A DNA stretch of 64,000 nucleotides from NCBI GenBank assembly GCA_000091205.1, contig AP006487.2. The stretch is one strand, 5' to 3'. Position 1 is the stretch's first letter. Each line of letters begins with the position of its first letter. This document shows positions 26,450 to 33,639 of this stretch, piece by piece. Under the pieces are notes generated by a model. The model searched no databases. It was given only the letters and a program-made list of their open reading frames with translations, and was not told the origin of the DNA. This DNA comes from Cyanidioschyzon merolae (Eukaryota). The position numbers and the translations under genes were made by a program.

Positions 26450-28801
26450 TTGGAGGCGTGCGTTCTTTCGATGAGCTTTTATCCACGTGCAGGAGCTGGC
26501 GGCCCTCGAGCGCTGGGATCGCGCCCCGGCGACCTGAGTGGAGGCCTTGCGGGGAACCGTCCTGCATCGCTGCAGCCAGCTCGCTCGACTTCGGGTCAGA
26601 CAAACTCGAACGAGGCTGTGAGGCTTCTCCAGCTGAGTCCCACTGAACGAGAGGCATACCTTGTCTGGTACCGGGAGGTGCGCGACCCCGCAACCGGTTA
26701 TGTGCCTGGTGACGCAGCAGCTTCGCTTCTGCGCCGCTCTAACCTATACAAAGATCTGCTACGACAAATTTGGGTTTTGGCGGATACCCGTCGACGTGGG
26801 TATCTGGATCAGGACGAGTTTTTTGTTGCCTTGCGACTTGTTGCCATATGCCAACGCGGTGGCGAGCCTTCCCTGGATAGCTTGCGGCGCTTTCGCGGGA
26901 TGCAGCTCATCCCACAAATCGATCCGGCTTCTGCTTCGCGCCCCAGTGCTCAAACAACGCCTGGGGCTGCATCCGCTGCGCAACCGCGCGCTTCTTCTAG
27001 CACCAGCGCTAACCCGGGTGAAACGCTCTCCTGGACGCCAACCTATGAGCAAATCGCAGAATACGATGCGCTCATGCGACAGTATTGTGGAGGCGGTACC
27101 CAGCCGGGTCGGCATCAGTCAGCAGCAAGGCTGGTACGCCTTGCGGACTTGCGCATGACCGGCTCTATCGCGCGGGAGGTCTTTCCGAAACTCTGTCAGC
27201 ATCGCTTAAGCAGTGCCATTCTTCGAGATATCTGGGAGCTCGCCGACCAGGATCGAGATGGGCAGCTGGATTTGCAGGAGTTTCGCTGCGCTGCGCACCT
27301 TTTGACTGTTCTGGGTCGTCAGCCTGCGGACAAGGCGGTTGTGCCGCGCCCACTTCCCCCTGCGCTACGGAAGCAAAGTCTCCGTCTGCGTTTTGGAGAT
27401 GGAGCGAATACAGCGGGCGAGTTTACGGAGGCAGCGCCCTCGGTGCCCAGTGACGCGCTATCGGTTATCTCGTCGCCGAATGCGGAAGTGCCGGCTTCGC
27501 GGAATACGGACCTGGCAGGTGCGTTTTCAGCAGCCAGCAAGTCCGTAGAGGATGCACAGCGTCGCCTGAAAGAACTTCGGGATCATCTGGATCTGCTGGA
27601 AGTGCGAGGTCGTGCACTGGCGGAAAAGAAGCGCGTCACGCTGGCAAACAGCAGTACCAGCACGCTCGAGCGCATCTATGCGGAAGAGCAGGCCTTCGTA
27701 CGAGACGCCCGCGGCGTCGTTGAGGCATGTTTGTTGGATCTGGGCGGAACTCCCGGCCAGTCGCAGAGCGAATCAGTTGCAACGGCGTCAAGACCGGGAC
27801 CCGAATTAGAATCAGAACGCACGATGACCGCCTGGGGTCCGTCATTTTCGTTGAACCTGCAACAGCTGCTTATTAAAGCGAAGAACGAGACAGCCCGGGA
27901 ACGAGCGAAGGTGAAGGTTCTCGAAGAGGAACTCCAGATCGCCCGACGTCAGATTCAAGATATGGTTGCGACCGGGGCTACCGCCCCGGACAAGTTCGGC
28001 ACGGGTCGCACTGAGGGCCATCGTCGAACCCGAAACGTGCACGGGGCGAAGCTCGAGCCCCATGAACCCGGCAAAAGCGCTACACAACGACGAGCGCCAG
28101 GTGGACAGAAGAACGTGAGTGGCTCTCTGCTGGACGACTGGTCCCAAGACGACGCTGATGTGAACGCTGATGACGACGAAGCCCGCAACCAGAGAGCTCG
28201 AAGCAAACGGATCGAGCGCGCAGCGTACCGATTTTCCGCTGAGGAGCAGGTCCCCGAGGACAAGCCAATTGTACGAGATGATCTGGTGGATGTGCCACCC
28301 GAATGGAGTGCCGCTGCGGAGCATGCGCTTTCCGCGAACGAGTCCCGGCAACAGAGCAAGCTGGCCTCCACAGGTACTGCTCGTGGAGCAGCGGATTCCC
28401 GGGCGAGAGGCGACTCGCCGTACCGGCCTCCGCGGTATCAAGGCATGACGCGAGATGCAGCTACCGCTTTTGGCGCTTATATTCAGGACGTTGACGGGGC
28501 CAGAAGCAGACGTTTCGCGGACGACGAACCACGAGATGAGCGTCCTTCGGAGCGGCGGAGAGCGTCTCGCCAAGCGGCACAGTGGCGCCAGACTAGCGTC
28601 GCCGAACCCAGCGAGGATGAGAACTGGCGCAGCGGCAGCGATTACATAGAGGTATCCGAGAGTGTCCACGAGACGACACAGGGTGGCTCACAGCGAGCCG
28701 CCCAGAACCGCTCGGGAGCGATGACCGTCGGCAGCACCGCCGAGGATGACGACGACGAGTGGTCGCGGTCAGCGTCGACTGCTATTTTCAGCTACTGGTA
28801 G
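26450..28801 (+). CDS. EH-domain (Eps15-homology) endocytic adaptor-like protein with two EH domains and a long coiled-coil/low-complexity tail
   Basis: EH1 'YLVWYREVRDPATGYVPGDAAASLLRRSNLYKDLLRQIWVLADTRRRGYLDQDEFFVALRLV'. EH2 'GSIAREVFPKLCQHRLSSAILRDIWELADQDRDGQLDLQEFRCAAHLL'. Heptad-like 'ERAKVKVLEEELQIARRQIQD'. Confidence 0.75.
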   Translation: MEACVLSMSFYPRAGAGGPRALGSRPGDLSGGLAGNRPASLQPARSTSGQTNSNEAVRLLQLSPTEREAYLVWYREVRDPATGYVPGDAAASLLRRSNLYKDLLRQIWVLADTRRRGYLDQDEFFVALRLVAICQRGGEPSLDSLRRFRGMQLIPQIDPASASRPSAQTTPGAASAAQPRASSSTSANPGETLSWTPTYEQIAEYDALMRQYCGGGTQPGRHQSAARLVRLADLRMTGSIAREVFPKLCQHRLSSAILRDIWELADQDRDGQLDLQEFRCAAHLLTVLGRQPADKAVVPRPLPPALRKQSLRLRFGDGANTAGEFTEAAPSVPSDALSVISSPNAEVPASRNTDLAGAFSAASKSVEDAQRRLKELRDHLDLLEVRGRALAEKKRVTLANSSTSTLERIYAEEQAFVRDARGVVEACLLDLGGTPGQSQSESVATASRPGPELESERTMTAWGPSFSLNLQQLLIKAKNETARERAKVKVLEEELQIARRQIQDMVATGATAPDKFGTGRTEGHRRTRNVHGAKLEPHEPGKSATQRRAPGGQKNVSGSLLDDWSQDDADVNADDDEARNQRARSKRIERAAYRFSAEEQVPEDKPIVRDDLVDVPPEWSAAAEHALSANESRQQSKLASTGTARGAADSRARGDSPYRPPRYQGMTRDAATAFGAYIQDVDGARSRRFADDEPRDERPSERRRASRQAAQWRQTSVAEPSEDENWRSGSDYIEVSESVHETTQGGSQRAAQNRSGAMTVGSTAEDDDDEWSRSASTAIFSYW

Positions 28802-29849
28802 AGCAGGCGTGGTGCCTGCTTACTTTTCTAGCGCAGATACGATGCTTCTGGACTTGGTACGTGAGCAAAACGGGAGGAATTTTGGCCGAACAAAGTCAGC
28901 AAGTGTATAAACGCGGTTCAAGCGAGCACGTCACCTGATTCCAGGTTCAACATGTCGCTTGTCTCGAGAATAGAAGCCACGGATTCGAGTGTTGGGAAAC
29001 GCCTCTGGGTACCTGGAAGTACGCGCCGTGTCGGCTATGTTGCCGACGCCAGCGACAAAAACGAAAACAGGTCACCGATGGGGATGTATGCGCTCTCCAA
29101 CAACAGCCGTATAGACACAAAAAGGCTGCGGTCCGTCTCTTGCCTACGTTATTCTAATGTCGATGAAATATCCCCGCTCGATGCATTGCCAGAGGCATTG
29201 GACGATTTTTTGGTCCAGCGTCGAGTGTGAATAGCGTGGGCAGCGCCAGACGCATCGTCCAGGCCGAACAGCGACGAAGGAATCGGTGCAGGTCAGCCCG
29301 GAGGCGTTTTCTTTGTCATCACATTGCGAGACGCTTCATGGCTCATTTGAGGGACTTGAAAGCGCACGAAATTGGCTTGGATATAACGTCAGCGTATCAG
29401 GTTACACATGTGGATACAGGACCTGAGCCGTCGACACCAAAAGAGCATTGTTGAAGCGTGCACTTTCAGGGCGTACACAAGCAACCATGCTGACGGGTCT
29501 GGAGCGATGTATCGAAGCAGATACACTCGGATACGCGACTAGTGCAGATTTATGGGAAGCGAAGTCATTTCTCGTGGAGCGCTATTGTCTGCGACTGGAC
29601 TCTGGTCAGTTTTTACTTTGGAATAAACGCATGATCGATCTGGACACCGTCCGTATGCTGAGCGTATCCGGGGCAGTTGCAGCGTCGCTAGCGACGCTTC
29701 AGCGGTCGCTTGCACATGGACAGGATGACTCGCAGATGTATATGCAGGTGTCCACCGGAGAAACGTACGCATTCAGGTCTCTGTTCCATACGTCAGAAGC
29801 GAGAGTCCCTGGAGCGAGGTCTTGTGACTGGCTATCGACGACAACGGCT

Positions 29850-31195
29850 CATTCACGAAAACGACATTGATTCCAGTCAACGCAACGCTCTGCAGTAGTG
29901 CACCTCTGGATGTGCGACTGCTCGCGTGCGTCCCTCTTCCGTTACACTTCATGTGCATCGATTCAGTCACGAAAACGACATTGATTCCAGTCAACGCAAC
30001 GCTCTGCAGTAGTGCACCTCTGGATGTGCGACTGCTCGCGTGCGTCCCTCTTCCGTTACACTTCTGGTGCATCGATTCAGTCACGAAAACGACATTGATT
30101 CCAGTCAACGCAACGCTATGCAGTAGTGCACCTCTGGATGTACGACTGCTCGCGTGCGTCCCTCTTCCGTTACACTTCATGTGCATCGATTCAGTCACGA
30201 AAACGACATTGATTCCAGTCAACGCAACGCTATGCAGTAGTGCACCTCTGGATGTACGAGTGCTCGCGTGCGTCCCTCTTCCGTTACACTTCAGGTGCAT
30301 CGATTCAGTCACGAAAACGACATTGATTCCAGTCAACGCAACGCTATGCAGTAGTGCACCTCTGGATGTACTGCTGCTCGCGTGCGTCCCTCTTCCGTTA
30401 CACTTCATGTGCATCGATTCAGTCACGAAAACGACATTGATTCCAGTCAACGCAACGCTATGCAGTAGTGCACCTCTGGATGTACGAGTGCTCGCGTGCG
30501 TCCCTCTTCCGTTACACTTCAGGTGCATCGATTCAGTCGCGACAACGACATTGATTCCAGGCAACGCAACGCTATGCAGTAGTGCACCTCTGGATGTACG
30601 AGTGCTCGCGTGCGTCCCTCTTCCGTTACACTTCAGGTGCATCGATTCAGTCGCGACAACGACATTGATTCCAGTCAACGCAACGCTATGCAGTAGTGCA
30701 CCTCTGGATGTACTGCTGCTCGCGTGCGTCCCTCTTCCGTTACACTTCATGTGCATCGATTCAGTCACGAAAACGACATTGATTCCAGTCAACGCAACGC
30801 TATGCAGTAGTGCACCTCTGGATGTGCGACTGCTCGCGTGCGTCCCTCTTCCGTTACACTTCTGGTGCATCGATTCAGTCACGAAAACGACATTGATTCC
30901 AGTCAACGCAACGCTATGCAGTAGTGCACCTCTGGATTTACGAGTGCTCGCGTGCGTCCCTCTTCCGTTACACTTCATGTGCATCGATTCAGTCGCGACA
31001 ACGACATTGATTCCAGTCAACGCAACGCTATGCAGTAGTGCACCTCTGGATGTACGAGTGCTCGCGTGCGTCCCTCTTCCGTTACACTTCAGGTGCATCG
31101 ATTCAGTCGCGACAACGACATTGATTCCAGGCAACGCAACGCTATGCAGTAGTGCACCTCTGGATGTGCGACTGCACGCGTGCGTCTGCGCGCTC
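29850..31195. repeat. Tandem array, 114-bp unit x ~11.8 (satellite/minisatellite), in-frame with 3 (38 codons)
   Basis: 'attgattccagtcaacgcaacgct' recurs at 29866, 29980, 30094 and onward (period 114). Units differ at about 5 positions, with a higher-order pattern. Both strands are open through the array (ORFs 29773-31212 minus, 29867-31261 plus). Confidence 0.95.
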
Positions 31196-31270
31196 ATAAC
31201 ACGCTTCAGCACTTGCAGTAACGTTCGAGTTACGTTTTCTTCTAGTCGCGTGAGACACTAGACTACCGGA

Positions 31271-32443
31271 ATGGAGAAGGTTTGCGACCTGCCTCAGAGT
31301 CCTATATGGAACTGGACTGCGAAGCTCTCACCGACCTCGAGTGGGACGTATACCTCTGTTCCGTTCCCGTCGCATGTTCGGAACGCGTTCAAGCGCTCGG
31401 GAGCCACGTTGACGGAGCGACACGACGCTACAGGCGAGCTGGTTCGTTTACTCGACGACCTCTCCACAGAGTTCCGGTGGATAGCAGCACGCACTCGGGA
31501 AATGTTTGTGAAATCGCTAGAGTCGACACCTTTTACGCCTCGGTTAGTCACACAGCAGTTGTACTTTGCACTGTGTCACGATGGATATGCGTGTCTGTTG
31601 GTTAGTAAAGACCAGAAGGAGCCGATGTCGATACCCCCGGATATGCCGTCCGGGAGTTATGTGATTGTGTTAGTGAGTCTGGATCTTGATGAGGAGCTTG
31701 CGCCCTCAGAAGGCCTCGTGGGCTCCCTCTTCTCCGTCTACAAGCGAAAGACCGCACCTGGCCGAGCCGGTCGGCGCGAGGACTTGCAAGTTTGCTTCGC
31801 TGACCAGGTAGCGGCGGGCTATGCACTTTACGGTAGTTCCACACAGCTCTGCTATTGCATGCGAGGCAATCCCGGAGTGTATCGCTTTGTTTTGCATCCA
31901 GTGGCCAAGCAGTTCTTCATGTGTCGAGGCGGCCCGATCGAGTTCGGTTCCGAGTACGATCGCGGTCGACAGCGCTTGCAGACTGTACTCGCTGTACCGA
32001 CGGAAGCCGCCGGGACCTCTACTGTAGCCTCGGAAGCGAGTGCGCATGTCGTCACACCGATACTGTTTGCTGCTCGAGAGCTTTTCCTCGGTGATGACGC
32101 CTTAGCACAGACCCTGCGTCATCTGGCCGACCAGTATGAGTATAGCGCCGTTCACACGGGTTGTCTGATCGGAGATTTTCATACATTAATGCAGCGAGGA
32201 GGCATTTTAGTTGCGGATAACGTAGACGCCCTGTGCGAAGCAGCTCCAATGGCGTATCTGGCCGAGGAGGCCGGCGCTCGAGCAATCGACCAGCGGGGCT
32301 GTCGCATTCTCAGCCAAAATCTTGGTGGCGATCACCCGCTCCACACCAGAACTTGCCTAATTATCGGGTCGCCAACTCAGCTGGCTCAGTTTGAACAGAT
32401 TCTACAAGAGTACCAGTCGGGCGCAACATCGGCGGATACTTGA
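31271..32443 (+). CDS. Divergent fructose-1,6-/sedoheptulose-1,7-bisphosphatase-like protein (FBPase fold)
   Basis: C-terminal FBPase motifs 'AAGYALYGSSTQLCY' and 'PMAYLAEEAGARAIDQRGCRILS'. The metal-binding 'DPLDGSSN' region reads 'VSLDLDEEL'. Confidence 0.7.
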   Translation: MEKVCDLPQSPIWNWTAKLSPTSSGTYTSVPFPSHVRNAFKRSGATLTERHDATGELVRLLDDLSTEFRWIAARTREMFVKSLESTPFTPRLVTQQLYFALCHDGYACLLVSKDQKEPMSIPPDMPSGSYVIVLVSLDLDEELAPSEGLVGSLFSVYKRKTAPGRAGRREDLQVCFADQVAAGYALYGSSTQLCYCMRGNPGVYRFVLHPVAKQFFMCRGGPIEFGSEYDRGRQRLQTVLAVPTEAAGTSTVASEASAHVVTPILFAARELFLGDDALAQTLRHLADQYEYSAVHTGCLIGDFHTLMQRGGILVADNVDALCEAAPMAYLAEEAGARAIDQRGCRILSQNLGGDHPLHTRTCLIIGSPTQLAQFEQILQEYQSGATSADT

Positions 32444-32805: not shown

Positions 32806-33639
32806 TCAGGGTGTATCCTGTTGCATGGTTGCATCGTGATGCTCGTCCGAGTCCGTTACGTTCTGCGGCGCTTGTTCGGTGCTCGTCTCCGTTGCCGTTC
32901 CACCAGACTTTGGAAACGCGCAGGCATCCAGCAGTGGCTGCACCTGCTCATGTTCGTAAAGATGAAAACGCATATCATCGCCGATGCTGACAACCCCGAC
33001 CGCACAGTTTTCCGCACTCAAGTGCTGATCTTTGGCGGACGCAAGCGTCTCATTCAGTGCCCATAGAGCATGGCGAATAAGCGCCTCTCGAGAAGCCGAT
33101 GAAAACTCATCCATATGACGTTCTAAGTAGGTGCGGGCGCTCTGTGAACGTGCTCCTAATGCCATACCCACGAGATCGTAAACCTCTCCGCTCGGACAGG
33201 TTTGATAGAGGTGAGGGCCACTCTCGTCGACGCCAGCAACTAGCAACCCTACACCATACGGCCGTCGAGAAATGCGTTGTGTGCACTTTTGGCACAGGTC
33301 TGCGACCAGGTGCACGAGGCGTCCAACCGGCATAGCGTCCCCGTAGACAAAGCGGTGTTGCAAGCACTCGTCCCGCATTCTTTTGGTCAAGACGCGGGCA
33401 TCTGCAGCAATACCGGATATGGCAACCCCTATGTGTTCATCAATAGGAACGATCTTTCGTTGGTGCCACGCTAAGTCGGAAAACGAGCGTTTCAGGGCAG
33501 CCAAGACAACGTGCGTTGCTGAGCAGACCCCAACCACCGCGGAGCCCTGTTTCACCGCCTCCATGGCGTACTCTACCTGCAGGAGGCGACCCTGTGGCGA
33601 AAATGTTGTTACATCAGTGTCATACTGGCTGCGGAACAT
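32806..33639 (-). CDS. PSMA1: Proteasome subunit alpha type-1 (20S core alpha subunit)
   Basis: '[37 protein letters not shown]' matches the human PSMA1 N-terminus '[37 protein letters not shown]'. Also '[18 protein letters not shown]'. Confidence 0.93.
   Translation of the reverse strand: [277 protein letters not shown]

Follow-up and report, generated by a model that had tools for sequence, protein, structure and literature searches.

A catalytically degenerate fructose-1,6-bisphosphatase homolog of Cyanidioschyzon merolae and its conserved clade in red algae, Rhodelphis and glaucophytes

Can a protein that keeps the fold and the database name of a central enzyme of carbon metabolism still be that enzyme? 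The question is raised by one gene in a 64,000-nucleotide stretch of contig AP006487.2 of the red alga Cyanidioschyzon merolae (GenBank assembly GCA_000091205.1), referred to here as the window. The gene is related to fructose-1,6-bisphosphatase (FBPase) and consists of a single open reading frame (ORF):

31271-32443, plus strand: ORF of the FBPase-fold paralog, intron-less, with an ATG start and 390 amino acids plus stop

Its product is 100% identical to the C. merolae 10D protein BAM79345.1 (XP_005535631.1; UniProt M1V4G6), whose existing annotation is 'similar to fructose 1,6-bisphosphatase'. A sequence-only reading of the window had described an FBPase-fold protein with a non-canonical metal-binding block, and had proposed either a catalytically altered or regulatory paralog or a lineage-specific bisphosphatase. 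Sequence comparison and structure prediction together favor, with a probability of about 0.6, a cytosolic, non-catalytic regulatory or ligand-sensing pseudoenzyme of class I FBPase fold.

Family membership and predicted fold

Both Pfam domains of the family are detected above their gathering thresholds: the FBPase N-domain (PF00316) reaches 58.3 bits (E-value 1e-15; threshold 34.8 bits) and FBPase_C (PF18913) reaches 40.4 bits (E-value 3e-10; threshold 27 bits). Searched with phmmer against the PDB, the protein matches human FBP1 with an E-value of 3e-16, while the SBPase structures 5iz3 (0.02) and 7b2o (2e-4) give weaker matches. The NCBIfam equivalog cutoff for FBPase is missed, the best model (NF006778) scoring 105.8 bits against a required 368. 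An AlphaFold2 model computed from a 40-sequence family alignment has a mean pLDDT of 84.2 and a pTM of 0.85, and its top Foldseek matches are the human, pig, yeast and E. coli FBPases (E ~1e-22, identity 20-22%, target-normalised template modelling (TM) scores of 0.79-0.86). In this model the two-domain alpha-beta sandwich of the FBPase/IMPase type is intact. The motifs quoted in the earlier reading, VAAGYALYGSST, 'PMAYLAEEAG' (amino acids 326-335) and YVIVLVSLDLDEEL, are all present, and its assignment of the fold stands. Two features of the fold can be placed on the DNA:

31808-31843, plus strand: VAAGYALYGSST, amino acids 180-191, which preserves the canonical core beta-strand block of the N-domain
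31946-32059, plus strand: insertion of 38 amino acids (226-263), found only in Cyanidioschyzon, Cyanidiococcus and Cyanidium

The insertion is the lowest-confidence part of the model apart from the N-terminal tail.

The protein shares much with class I FBPases such as human FBP1, pig kidney FBPase and E. coli Fbp. They have the same two-domain fold (TM 0.8-0.86) and a similar length, and the common sequence features include the blocks VAAGY.LYGS, LDP/LHP and (L/Y)(C/Y)E..P.A...E.AGG, the T27-G28-E29-L30 loop, and residues Y113, D121 and E280. The 'loop 170' insertion is absent from both; no insertion of that size was found in the C. merolae protein, whose 131-170 region is only about 2 residues longer than in human FBP1. 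The N-terminus is constrained by a stop codon in the same frame:

31259-31261, plus strand: in-frame TAG three codons before the ATG, which sets the limit on the N-terminus

Because this TAG lies 9 nt upstream of the ATG, the protein has neither an N-terminal extension nor a transit peptide. It therefore resembles cytosolic FBPase (cyFBPase), which likewise lacks both a transit peptide and the redox loop 170, and it shows neither of these marks of the chloroplast isoforms cpFBPase1 and cpFBPase2, of which cpFBPase1 bears regulatory Cys in loop 170. SBPase was considered and rejected as its identity, given the weak matches to 5iz3 and 7b2o and the loss of metal ligands described below; SBPases belong to the same fold superfamily but keep all of these ligands.

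Loss of catalytic and substrate-binding residues

Active-site residues are numbered here as in the pig and human enzymes, the human sequence having been checked against PDB segments and the N212/Y215 region against pig FBPase. Three segments of the gene carry the replaced or retained positions:

31601-31615, plus strand: VSKDQ, replacing (V/A)SEE(D/N); metal ligand E97 becomes K113 and E98 becomes D114
31658-31699, plus strand: YVIVLVSLDLDEEL, amino acids 130-143, replacing YVV.FDPLDGSSNI; D118 becomes V136, while L120 and D121 are kept as L137 and D138
32219-32275, plus strand: NVDALCEAAPMAYLAEEAG; E280 is kept as E323, R276 becomes D319, and the 264-274 loop is deleted just upstream

The placement of these segments was obtained with phmmer, with a MAFFT alignment in which human FBP1 was joined by canonical FBPases of bacteria and fungi, and with hhalign, which aligned the family profile to the canonical profile at a probability of 100% (E 9e-51). 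All three put VSLDLDEE opposite DPLDGSSN and SKD opposite SEE. The non-canonical character of the DPLDGSSN block, first noticed by eye, is thereby confirmed, and because three independent alignments concur it cannot be maintained that all ligand residues are in fact conserved. No DPxDG motif occurs anywhere in the 390 amino acids. Four carboxylates, E97, D118, D121 and E280, bind metal in the canonical enzyme; the alignments place K113, V136, D138 and E323 at these positions, so that only D121 and E280 survive. The two that are lost, E97 and D118, serve throughout the FBPase/IMPase superfamily as ligands of metal sites 1 and 2.

The degeneration extends well beyond the metal site, and is broader than the sequence-only reading had claimed when it proposed a catalytically altered or regulatory paralog, a proposal that the HMM, profile-profile and structure-based checks support. 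The cradle of the 1-phosphate, G122-S123-S124-N125, is replaced by L-D-E-E in the phmmer and hhalign alignments (in MAFFT, L143 stands opposite N125). The catalytic loop 52-72 has become shorter, D68 falls opposite a gap and D74 is replaced, so that both acids are lost; in active class I FBPases D74 and E98 form the general-base pair. The six contacts to the sugar and 6-phosphate (N212, Y215, R243, Y244, Y264 and K274) are replaced without exception, Y264 and K274 disappearing with the deleted 264-274 loop. Position 276, an Asp (D319) in the C. merolae protein, is a His in most other members of its clade. On these grounds the protein almost certainly cannot perform the FBPase reaction. The alternative of a lineage-specific bisphosphatase is also unlikely, because the losses strike residues required by every Mg-dependent phosphatase of the superfamily.

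The same losses run through the relatives of the protein. Compared with class I FBPases, the clade lacks E97, E98 (in most members), D118, D68, D74 and G122-N125, as well as N212, Y215, R243, Y244, Y264, K274 and R276, and both loops are affected, 52-72 by shortening and 264-274 by deletion. It has in addition an extra conserved N-terminal segment (SPxSP ... F.SHVR), to which the Cyanidiales members add the 38-residue insertion. All 44 clade members in the MAFFT alignment are without E97, D118 and K274, and G122, S123 and Y264 are each kept in at most one of about 80 members. All 40 aligned members have the Asp at the position of S123, and few sequences of the wider set depart from it. In the same alignments the E97-D118-D121-E280 set is complete in 93 full-length homologs (at least 300 amino acids), which serve as the canonical comparison. 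A few unlabelled clade members (P0152, P0155 and P0156) are without E280 as well. The invariant Cys322 was considered as a new, family-specific metal ligand and rejected, since LLCEAAP also occurs in some canonical bacterial FBPases.

Distribution and phylogeny of the degenerate clade

A sequence search and a profile search of 5.8 billion proteins, followed by HMMER run exhaustively over 1.84 billion cluster representatives, recovered about 80 full-length relatives with a common signature of Lys, Arg or Asn at position 97, a residue other than Asp at 118, and Asp at 123. Every taxon-labelled member comes from Rhodophyta, Rhodelphis limneticus or Glaucophyta. The red-algal members, which represent every red-algal class, come from Cyanidioschyzon, Cyanidiococcus, Cyanidium, Galdieria, Porphyridium, Rhodosorus, Purpureofilum, Compsopogon, Rhodochaete, Porphyra/Pyropia, Chondrus, Gracilaria, Gracilariopsis, Agarophyton and Eucheuma. 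The glaucophytes are Cyanophora paradoxa and Gloeochaete wittrockiana. No member was found in green plants or in algae with red-derived secondary plastids, although such genomes are contained in the searched libraries. The labelled full-length members score at least 249 bits, the lowest being Cyanophora, whereas the best canonical FBPase, from Saprospiraceae, reaches 152 bits.

In a neighbor-joining tree of 52 sequences and 314 columns, the degenerate clade is recovered in 100 of 100 bootstrap replicates, red algae plus Rhodelphis in 94 and the glaucophytes in 89. Branching within the clade mirrors the organismal phylogeny, with glaucophytes diverging before Rhodelphis and Rhodelphis before the red algae, and therefore argues for vertical inheritance of an already degenerate protein. 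The sequences thus indicate that the degenerate state predates the split between red algae and Rhodelphis, and it probably dates from the split with glaucophytes.

Some multicellular red algae carry two paralogs of the degenerate clade, namely Gracilariopsis chorda (P0045/P0137) and Porphyra umbilicalis (P0086/P0319). A separate bacterial group of class I FBPase homologs, unrelated to the red-algal clade, was also encountered (P0069, P0073, P0074 from Candidatus Accumulibacter, P0078, P0147 and P0148). Its members show E97 to Ala, D74 to Lys, E280 to Lys or Gln and Y244 to Trp while keeping DALDGSSN, and judged by these replacements they are possibly another non-canonical subfamily.

Purifying selection and a shift of constraint

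The gene is under strong purifying selection. The ratio of nonsynonymous to synonymous substitution rates (dN/dS, Nei-Gojobori) is 0.069 between Cyanidiococcus and a related metagenomic Cyanidiales genome (the JGI relative); between C. merolae and Cyanidiococcus it is 0.045, which is only a bound because dS is saturated. Across the 40 aligned members, 46 columns are invariant. Enzyme-family homology combined with loss of essential residues, and purifying selection combined with deep conservation of the degenerate state, are thus all found here, as in a pseudoenzyme.

To see where this selection acts, conservation per column was converted to z-scores separately for the clade and for the 93 canonical FBPases, and the two sets were compared. 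Constraint in the clade is relatively stronger at residues 10-39 (z difference +1.3 to +1.5), a stretch made up of helix H1, the loop T27-L30 and the beginning of H2, and also at residues 80-89, 100-109 and 140-149. Relatively weaker constraint is seen in the catalytic loop (50-79), in the DGSSN segment (120-129; -1.5), at 240-259 and at 310-319, the z difference being -1.2 to -1.5 for residues 60-69 and 120-129. Mean conservation in the clade is 0.68 for the N-terminal 'AMP domain' and 0.51 for the substrate-binding C-domain, against 0.54 and 0.55 in the canonical set. Relative constraint has moved from the catalytic segments to the N-terminal AMP domain.

Conserved N-terminal blocks and a putative AMP-type site

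The N-terminal FBPase blocks had been called unrecognisable from the sequence alone. This does not hold: the HMMER alignment begins at residue 50 and 'TGEL' is present, invariant in the 40 aligned members. Two blocks stand out in this region:

31364-31390, plus strand: family-specific helix-H1 motif FPSHVRNAF, in which F32, H35, V36 and R37 are invariant in the 40 members
31424-31459, plus strand: DATGELVRLLDD, the most conserved block of the family, in which only the second residue varies

The first of these carries the F-x-S-H-V-R pattern, and its V36 aligns with V17 of the AMP site of pig and human FBPase. The second block, DATGELVRLLDD, of the pattern D-x-TGELVRLLDD, is the counterpart of the loop for the AMP phosphate and of the first part of helix H2, with T54-G55-E56-L57 matching T27-G28-E29-L30 of the human enzyme. 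The AMP contacts in the pig and human FBPase-AMP structures are V17, T27, G28, E29, T31, K112, Y113 and R140. Of these, V17, T27, G28, E29 and Y113 show no variation among the 40 aligned members; Rhodelphis has Ala at V17 and Lys at T27. R140 is Lys in the clade. Chloroplast FBPases are AMP-insensitive and have no TG motif. The pattern suggests that a phosphate- or nucleotide-binding site may have been retained.

The first 24 residues are predicted to be disordered in the AlphaFold2 model, and the P-Q-S-P of the C. merolae N-terminus (31292-31315) is a remnant of the SP-x-SP motif of the family. Florideophyte homologs (among them P0008, P0012, P0021 and P0031) possess an N-terminal extension with a conserved basic '(L/S)(T/P)PTA...KR(Q/R/V)(R/K)' motif, which is followed by 'SPxSP(M/L)G'. 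To the eye, the basic motif resembles a monopartite nuclear localization signal (NLS).

A probable pseudoenzyme and its alternatives

That the protein is not an FBPase is very likely, and considerably more secure than any particular regulatory role. As a pseudoenzyme, it would have abandoned the hydrolysis of sugar bisphosphates (FBP, SBP) and would act through the conserved surface of its AMP domain. The phosphate-binding loop that it has kept may serve to sense a nucleotide or another phosphorylated ligand, and the protein may associate with a partner protein, the most plausible candidate being the active cytosolic FBPase because FBPases are obligate oligomers. Ligand sensing, partner pairing or both would then modulate cytosolic gluconeogenic flux. 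Possible parallels are IMPase-family SuhB, which takes part in bacterial rRNA antitermination, the 'prozymes' of trypanosomatids, and fructose signalling by Arabidopsis FINS1/cyFBPase. In each, as here, an enzyme fold is kept under selection and function is, or can be, independent of catalysis; FINS1 and SuhB retain their catalytic residues, however, whereas the red-algal clade has lost them.

Several points weigh against this interpretation. Within the putative AMP-type site, T31 is replaced by Val and the K112 position is variable in the clade, and the site itself was placed by linear alignment against lists of contacts. The clade sample behind the conservation comparison is dominated by florideophytes. 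Hetero-oligomerisation with an active FBPase is suggested purely by analogy. The surviving D121 and E280, the near-invariant Asp at 123 and the His or Asp at 276 could still form a single metal site, and pseudoenzymes predicted from sequence have sometimes proved active through alternative mechanisms.

The last of these points leads to the main alternative, in which the protein is still an enzyme, acting on another phospho-substrate or in another reaction through a remodelled site where D138, D140, D/H319 and E323 remain and K113 stands in for a metal charge. The former active-site positions are indeed strongly conserved in their new state (Lys or Arg at 97, near-invariant Asp at 123, His or Asp at 276, E280 kept), as is the beta-core of the N-domain around them, and both His and Asp serve as metal ligands. 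Such an enzyme would nevertheless have to manage without E97 and D118, the superfamily-wide ligands of both metal sites, without the catalytic loop and every known sugar-phosphate contact, and with the 264-274 loop deleted, while its substrate-binding C-domain is the half less conserved within the clade; a remodelled enzyme is accordingly considered unlikely. A non-catalytic moonlighting role in the nucleus or in transcription draws on the NLS-like K-R-x-(R/K) motif in the N-terminal extension of many florideophyte members and on the conserved SP-x-SP motif before the fold, which could be phospho-regulated. Possible parallels are human FBP1, which acts in the nucleus, and Arabidopsis FINS1/cyFBPase, whose signalling is independent of catalysis. 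The proteins of C. merolae, Galdieria and Porphyridium are without the basic extension, however, and the signal was read by eye; a nuclear role appears rather doubtful.

Two further explanations were considered. If the motif loss were an alignment error, the protein could be an ordinary active FBPase or SBPase, as the database names of its homologs ('Fructose-bisphosphatase', 'fructose-1,6-bisphosphatase I') imply; the agreement of three alignment methods with high posterior confidence across the block, the missing DPxDG motif, a shortfall of more than 250 bits at the NCBIfam equivalog cutoffs and the poor SBPase matches make this very improbable. A decaying pseudogene or a spurious ORF is suggested by the position of the gene beside a 1.3-kb tandem array with spurious repeat-made ORFs. 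The frame, though, is intact over 390 amino acids, dN/dS lies at 0.05-0.07, orthologs are syntenic, the fold is predicted with confidence, and homologs with 46 invariant columns occur in more than 10 red-algal genera, Rhodelphis and glaucophytes, which leaves decay scarcely credible. Misalignment, SBPase identity and pseudogene status are thus excluded.

The pseudoenzyme reading can be carried further, to an ancient metabolite-sensing regulator that kept the allosteric AMP-type phosphate site and discarded catalysis. It would predate the split between red algae and Rhodelphis, possibly going back to the archaeplastid ancestor, would control cytosolic gluconeogenesis or storage-glucan flux in precisely the lineages with cytosolic starch, and would have been lost in green plants along with the move to plastid starch. 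Rhodophyta and Glaucophyta make their starch in the cytosol, green plants in the plastid. This extended scenario is distinctly doubtful, and the link between the clade and cytosolic starch is speculation from taxonomic distribution.

The upstream repeat array and the neighboring genes

The intergenic region upstream of the gene holds a tandem repeat. The flanking genes mark the window as eukaryotic, and it is nuclear DNA of C. merolae; a kinetoplastid origin, suggested by the dense, intron-less genes, was rejected because the homologs belong to Cyanidiales and the protein is identical to the C. merolae 10D entry. The surrounding features are as follows:

26450-28801, plus strand: flanking gene for an EH/EF-hand protein
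29849-31186, no strand assigned: 114-bp tandem array in the intergenic or promoter region, 11.7 copies with 96% matches, ending 84 bp before the ATG
29867-31261, plus strand: spurious repeat ORF
29773-31212, minus strand: spurious repeat ORF
32806-33639, minus strand: flanking gene for a proteasome alpha subunit

The array occurs once in the window, and the gene lies downstream of it, as had been noted from the sequence. Because 114 is a multiple of 3, the array produces long spurious ORFs on both strands. These were rejected as real genes or as an N-terminal domain, since the array has no Rfam family and no credible Pfam match and is missing at the orthologous loci; the minus-strand Pfam matches of its ORFs contain no individually significant stretch. 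The open plus-strand frame of the array (29867-31270) is that of the FBPase-like ORF, from which it is divided by the TAG at 31259-31261 and three codons. The shared frame is regarded as a coincidence because all orthologs start at a homologous Met; their starts coincide with that of C. merolae at the motif ME..[DE][LM]PQSP[IV]WNW.

Gene order between 26450 and 39868 is kept in Cyanidiococcus yangmingshanensis and in the JGI relative: EH-domain gene (plus), FBPase-like gene (plus), proteasome alpha subunit (minus), AMP-binding enzyme (minus) and porphobilinogen deaminase (minus). The array is absent from the orthologous intergenic regions of both Cyanidiococcus (L001) and the metagenomic relative (L002, L003), and is specific to C. 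merolae. In short-read and metagenome assemblies that encode the identical 390-residue protein (L004-L013), only 1-4 copies of the 114-bp unit are present. The EH gene and the FBPase-like gene are 1216, 1330 or 1444 bp apart in these assemblies, compared with 2470 bp in the window, and the differences are exact multiples of 114; in four cases the contig breaks off between 310 and 540 bp upstream of the ATG. The variation in copy number reflects either assembly collapse or true copy-number variation.

Two gene models of Cyanidiococcus deserve mention. One (P0002; L001 8001-9284) begins about 45 residues before the conserved start that C. merolae (MEKVCDLPQSP) shares with the JGI relative, and its internal Met (MQEMPQSPVWNW) aligns with that start, so the annotated start is probably over-extended. 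The model from a second assembly (P0005, 238 amino acids) departs after about residue 174 and looks like a frameshifted or truncated gene model.

Relation to described FBPases and significance

A survey of plant and algal FBPases, the only one found that includes C. merolae, distinguishes three types, cyFBPase, cpFBPase1 and cpFBPase2, and scores C. merolae as positive for the first two and negative for the third (PMC7195585). Its Table 1 is the sole support for separate canonical FBPases in C. merolae, and the survey does not mention a catalytically degenerate fourth clade. The present clade differs from those isoforms in that green plants lack it, while Rhodelphis and glaucophytes have it. 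An omics study of Galdieria partita reports that an isoform named 'FBP3' is up-regulated in photoautotrophy (PMC12145455); FBP3 could be the clade member GpartN1_g4319. The literature searched, in which the comma form of the enzyme name was probably left unmatched, contained no description of the protein or of any FBPase-family pseudoenzyme. While the gene itself is already annotated, an ancient, selectively maintained, degenerate FBPase clade in Rhodophyta, Rhodelphis and Glaucophyta appears to be undescribed.

In public databases the protein and its homologs are labelled 'fructose-bisphosphatase', 'FBPase class 1' or 'fructose-1,6-bisphosphatase I', and metabolic reconstructions of red algae and readings of omics data may therefore count as an FBPase a protein that almost certainly lacks this activity. 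The question of its function is directly testable, because homologous recombination makes C. merolae amenable to genetics. A probable pseudoenzyme that descends from a central enzyme of gluconeogenesis and the Calvin cycle is under strong selection in red algae, in their non-photosynthetic sister Rhodelphis and in glaucophytes, and its maintenance across these lineages suggests that carbon metabolism has a regulatory component there that had not been recognised.

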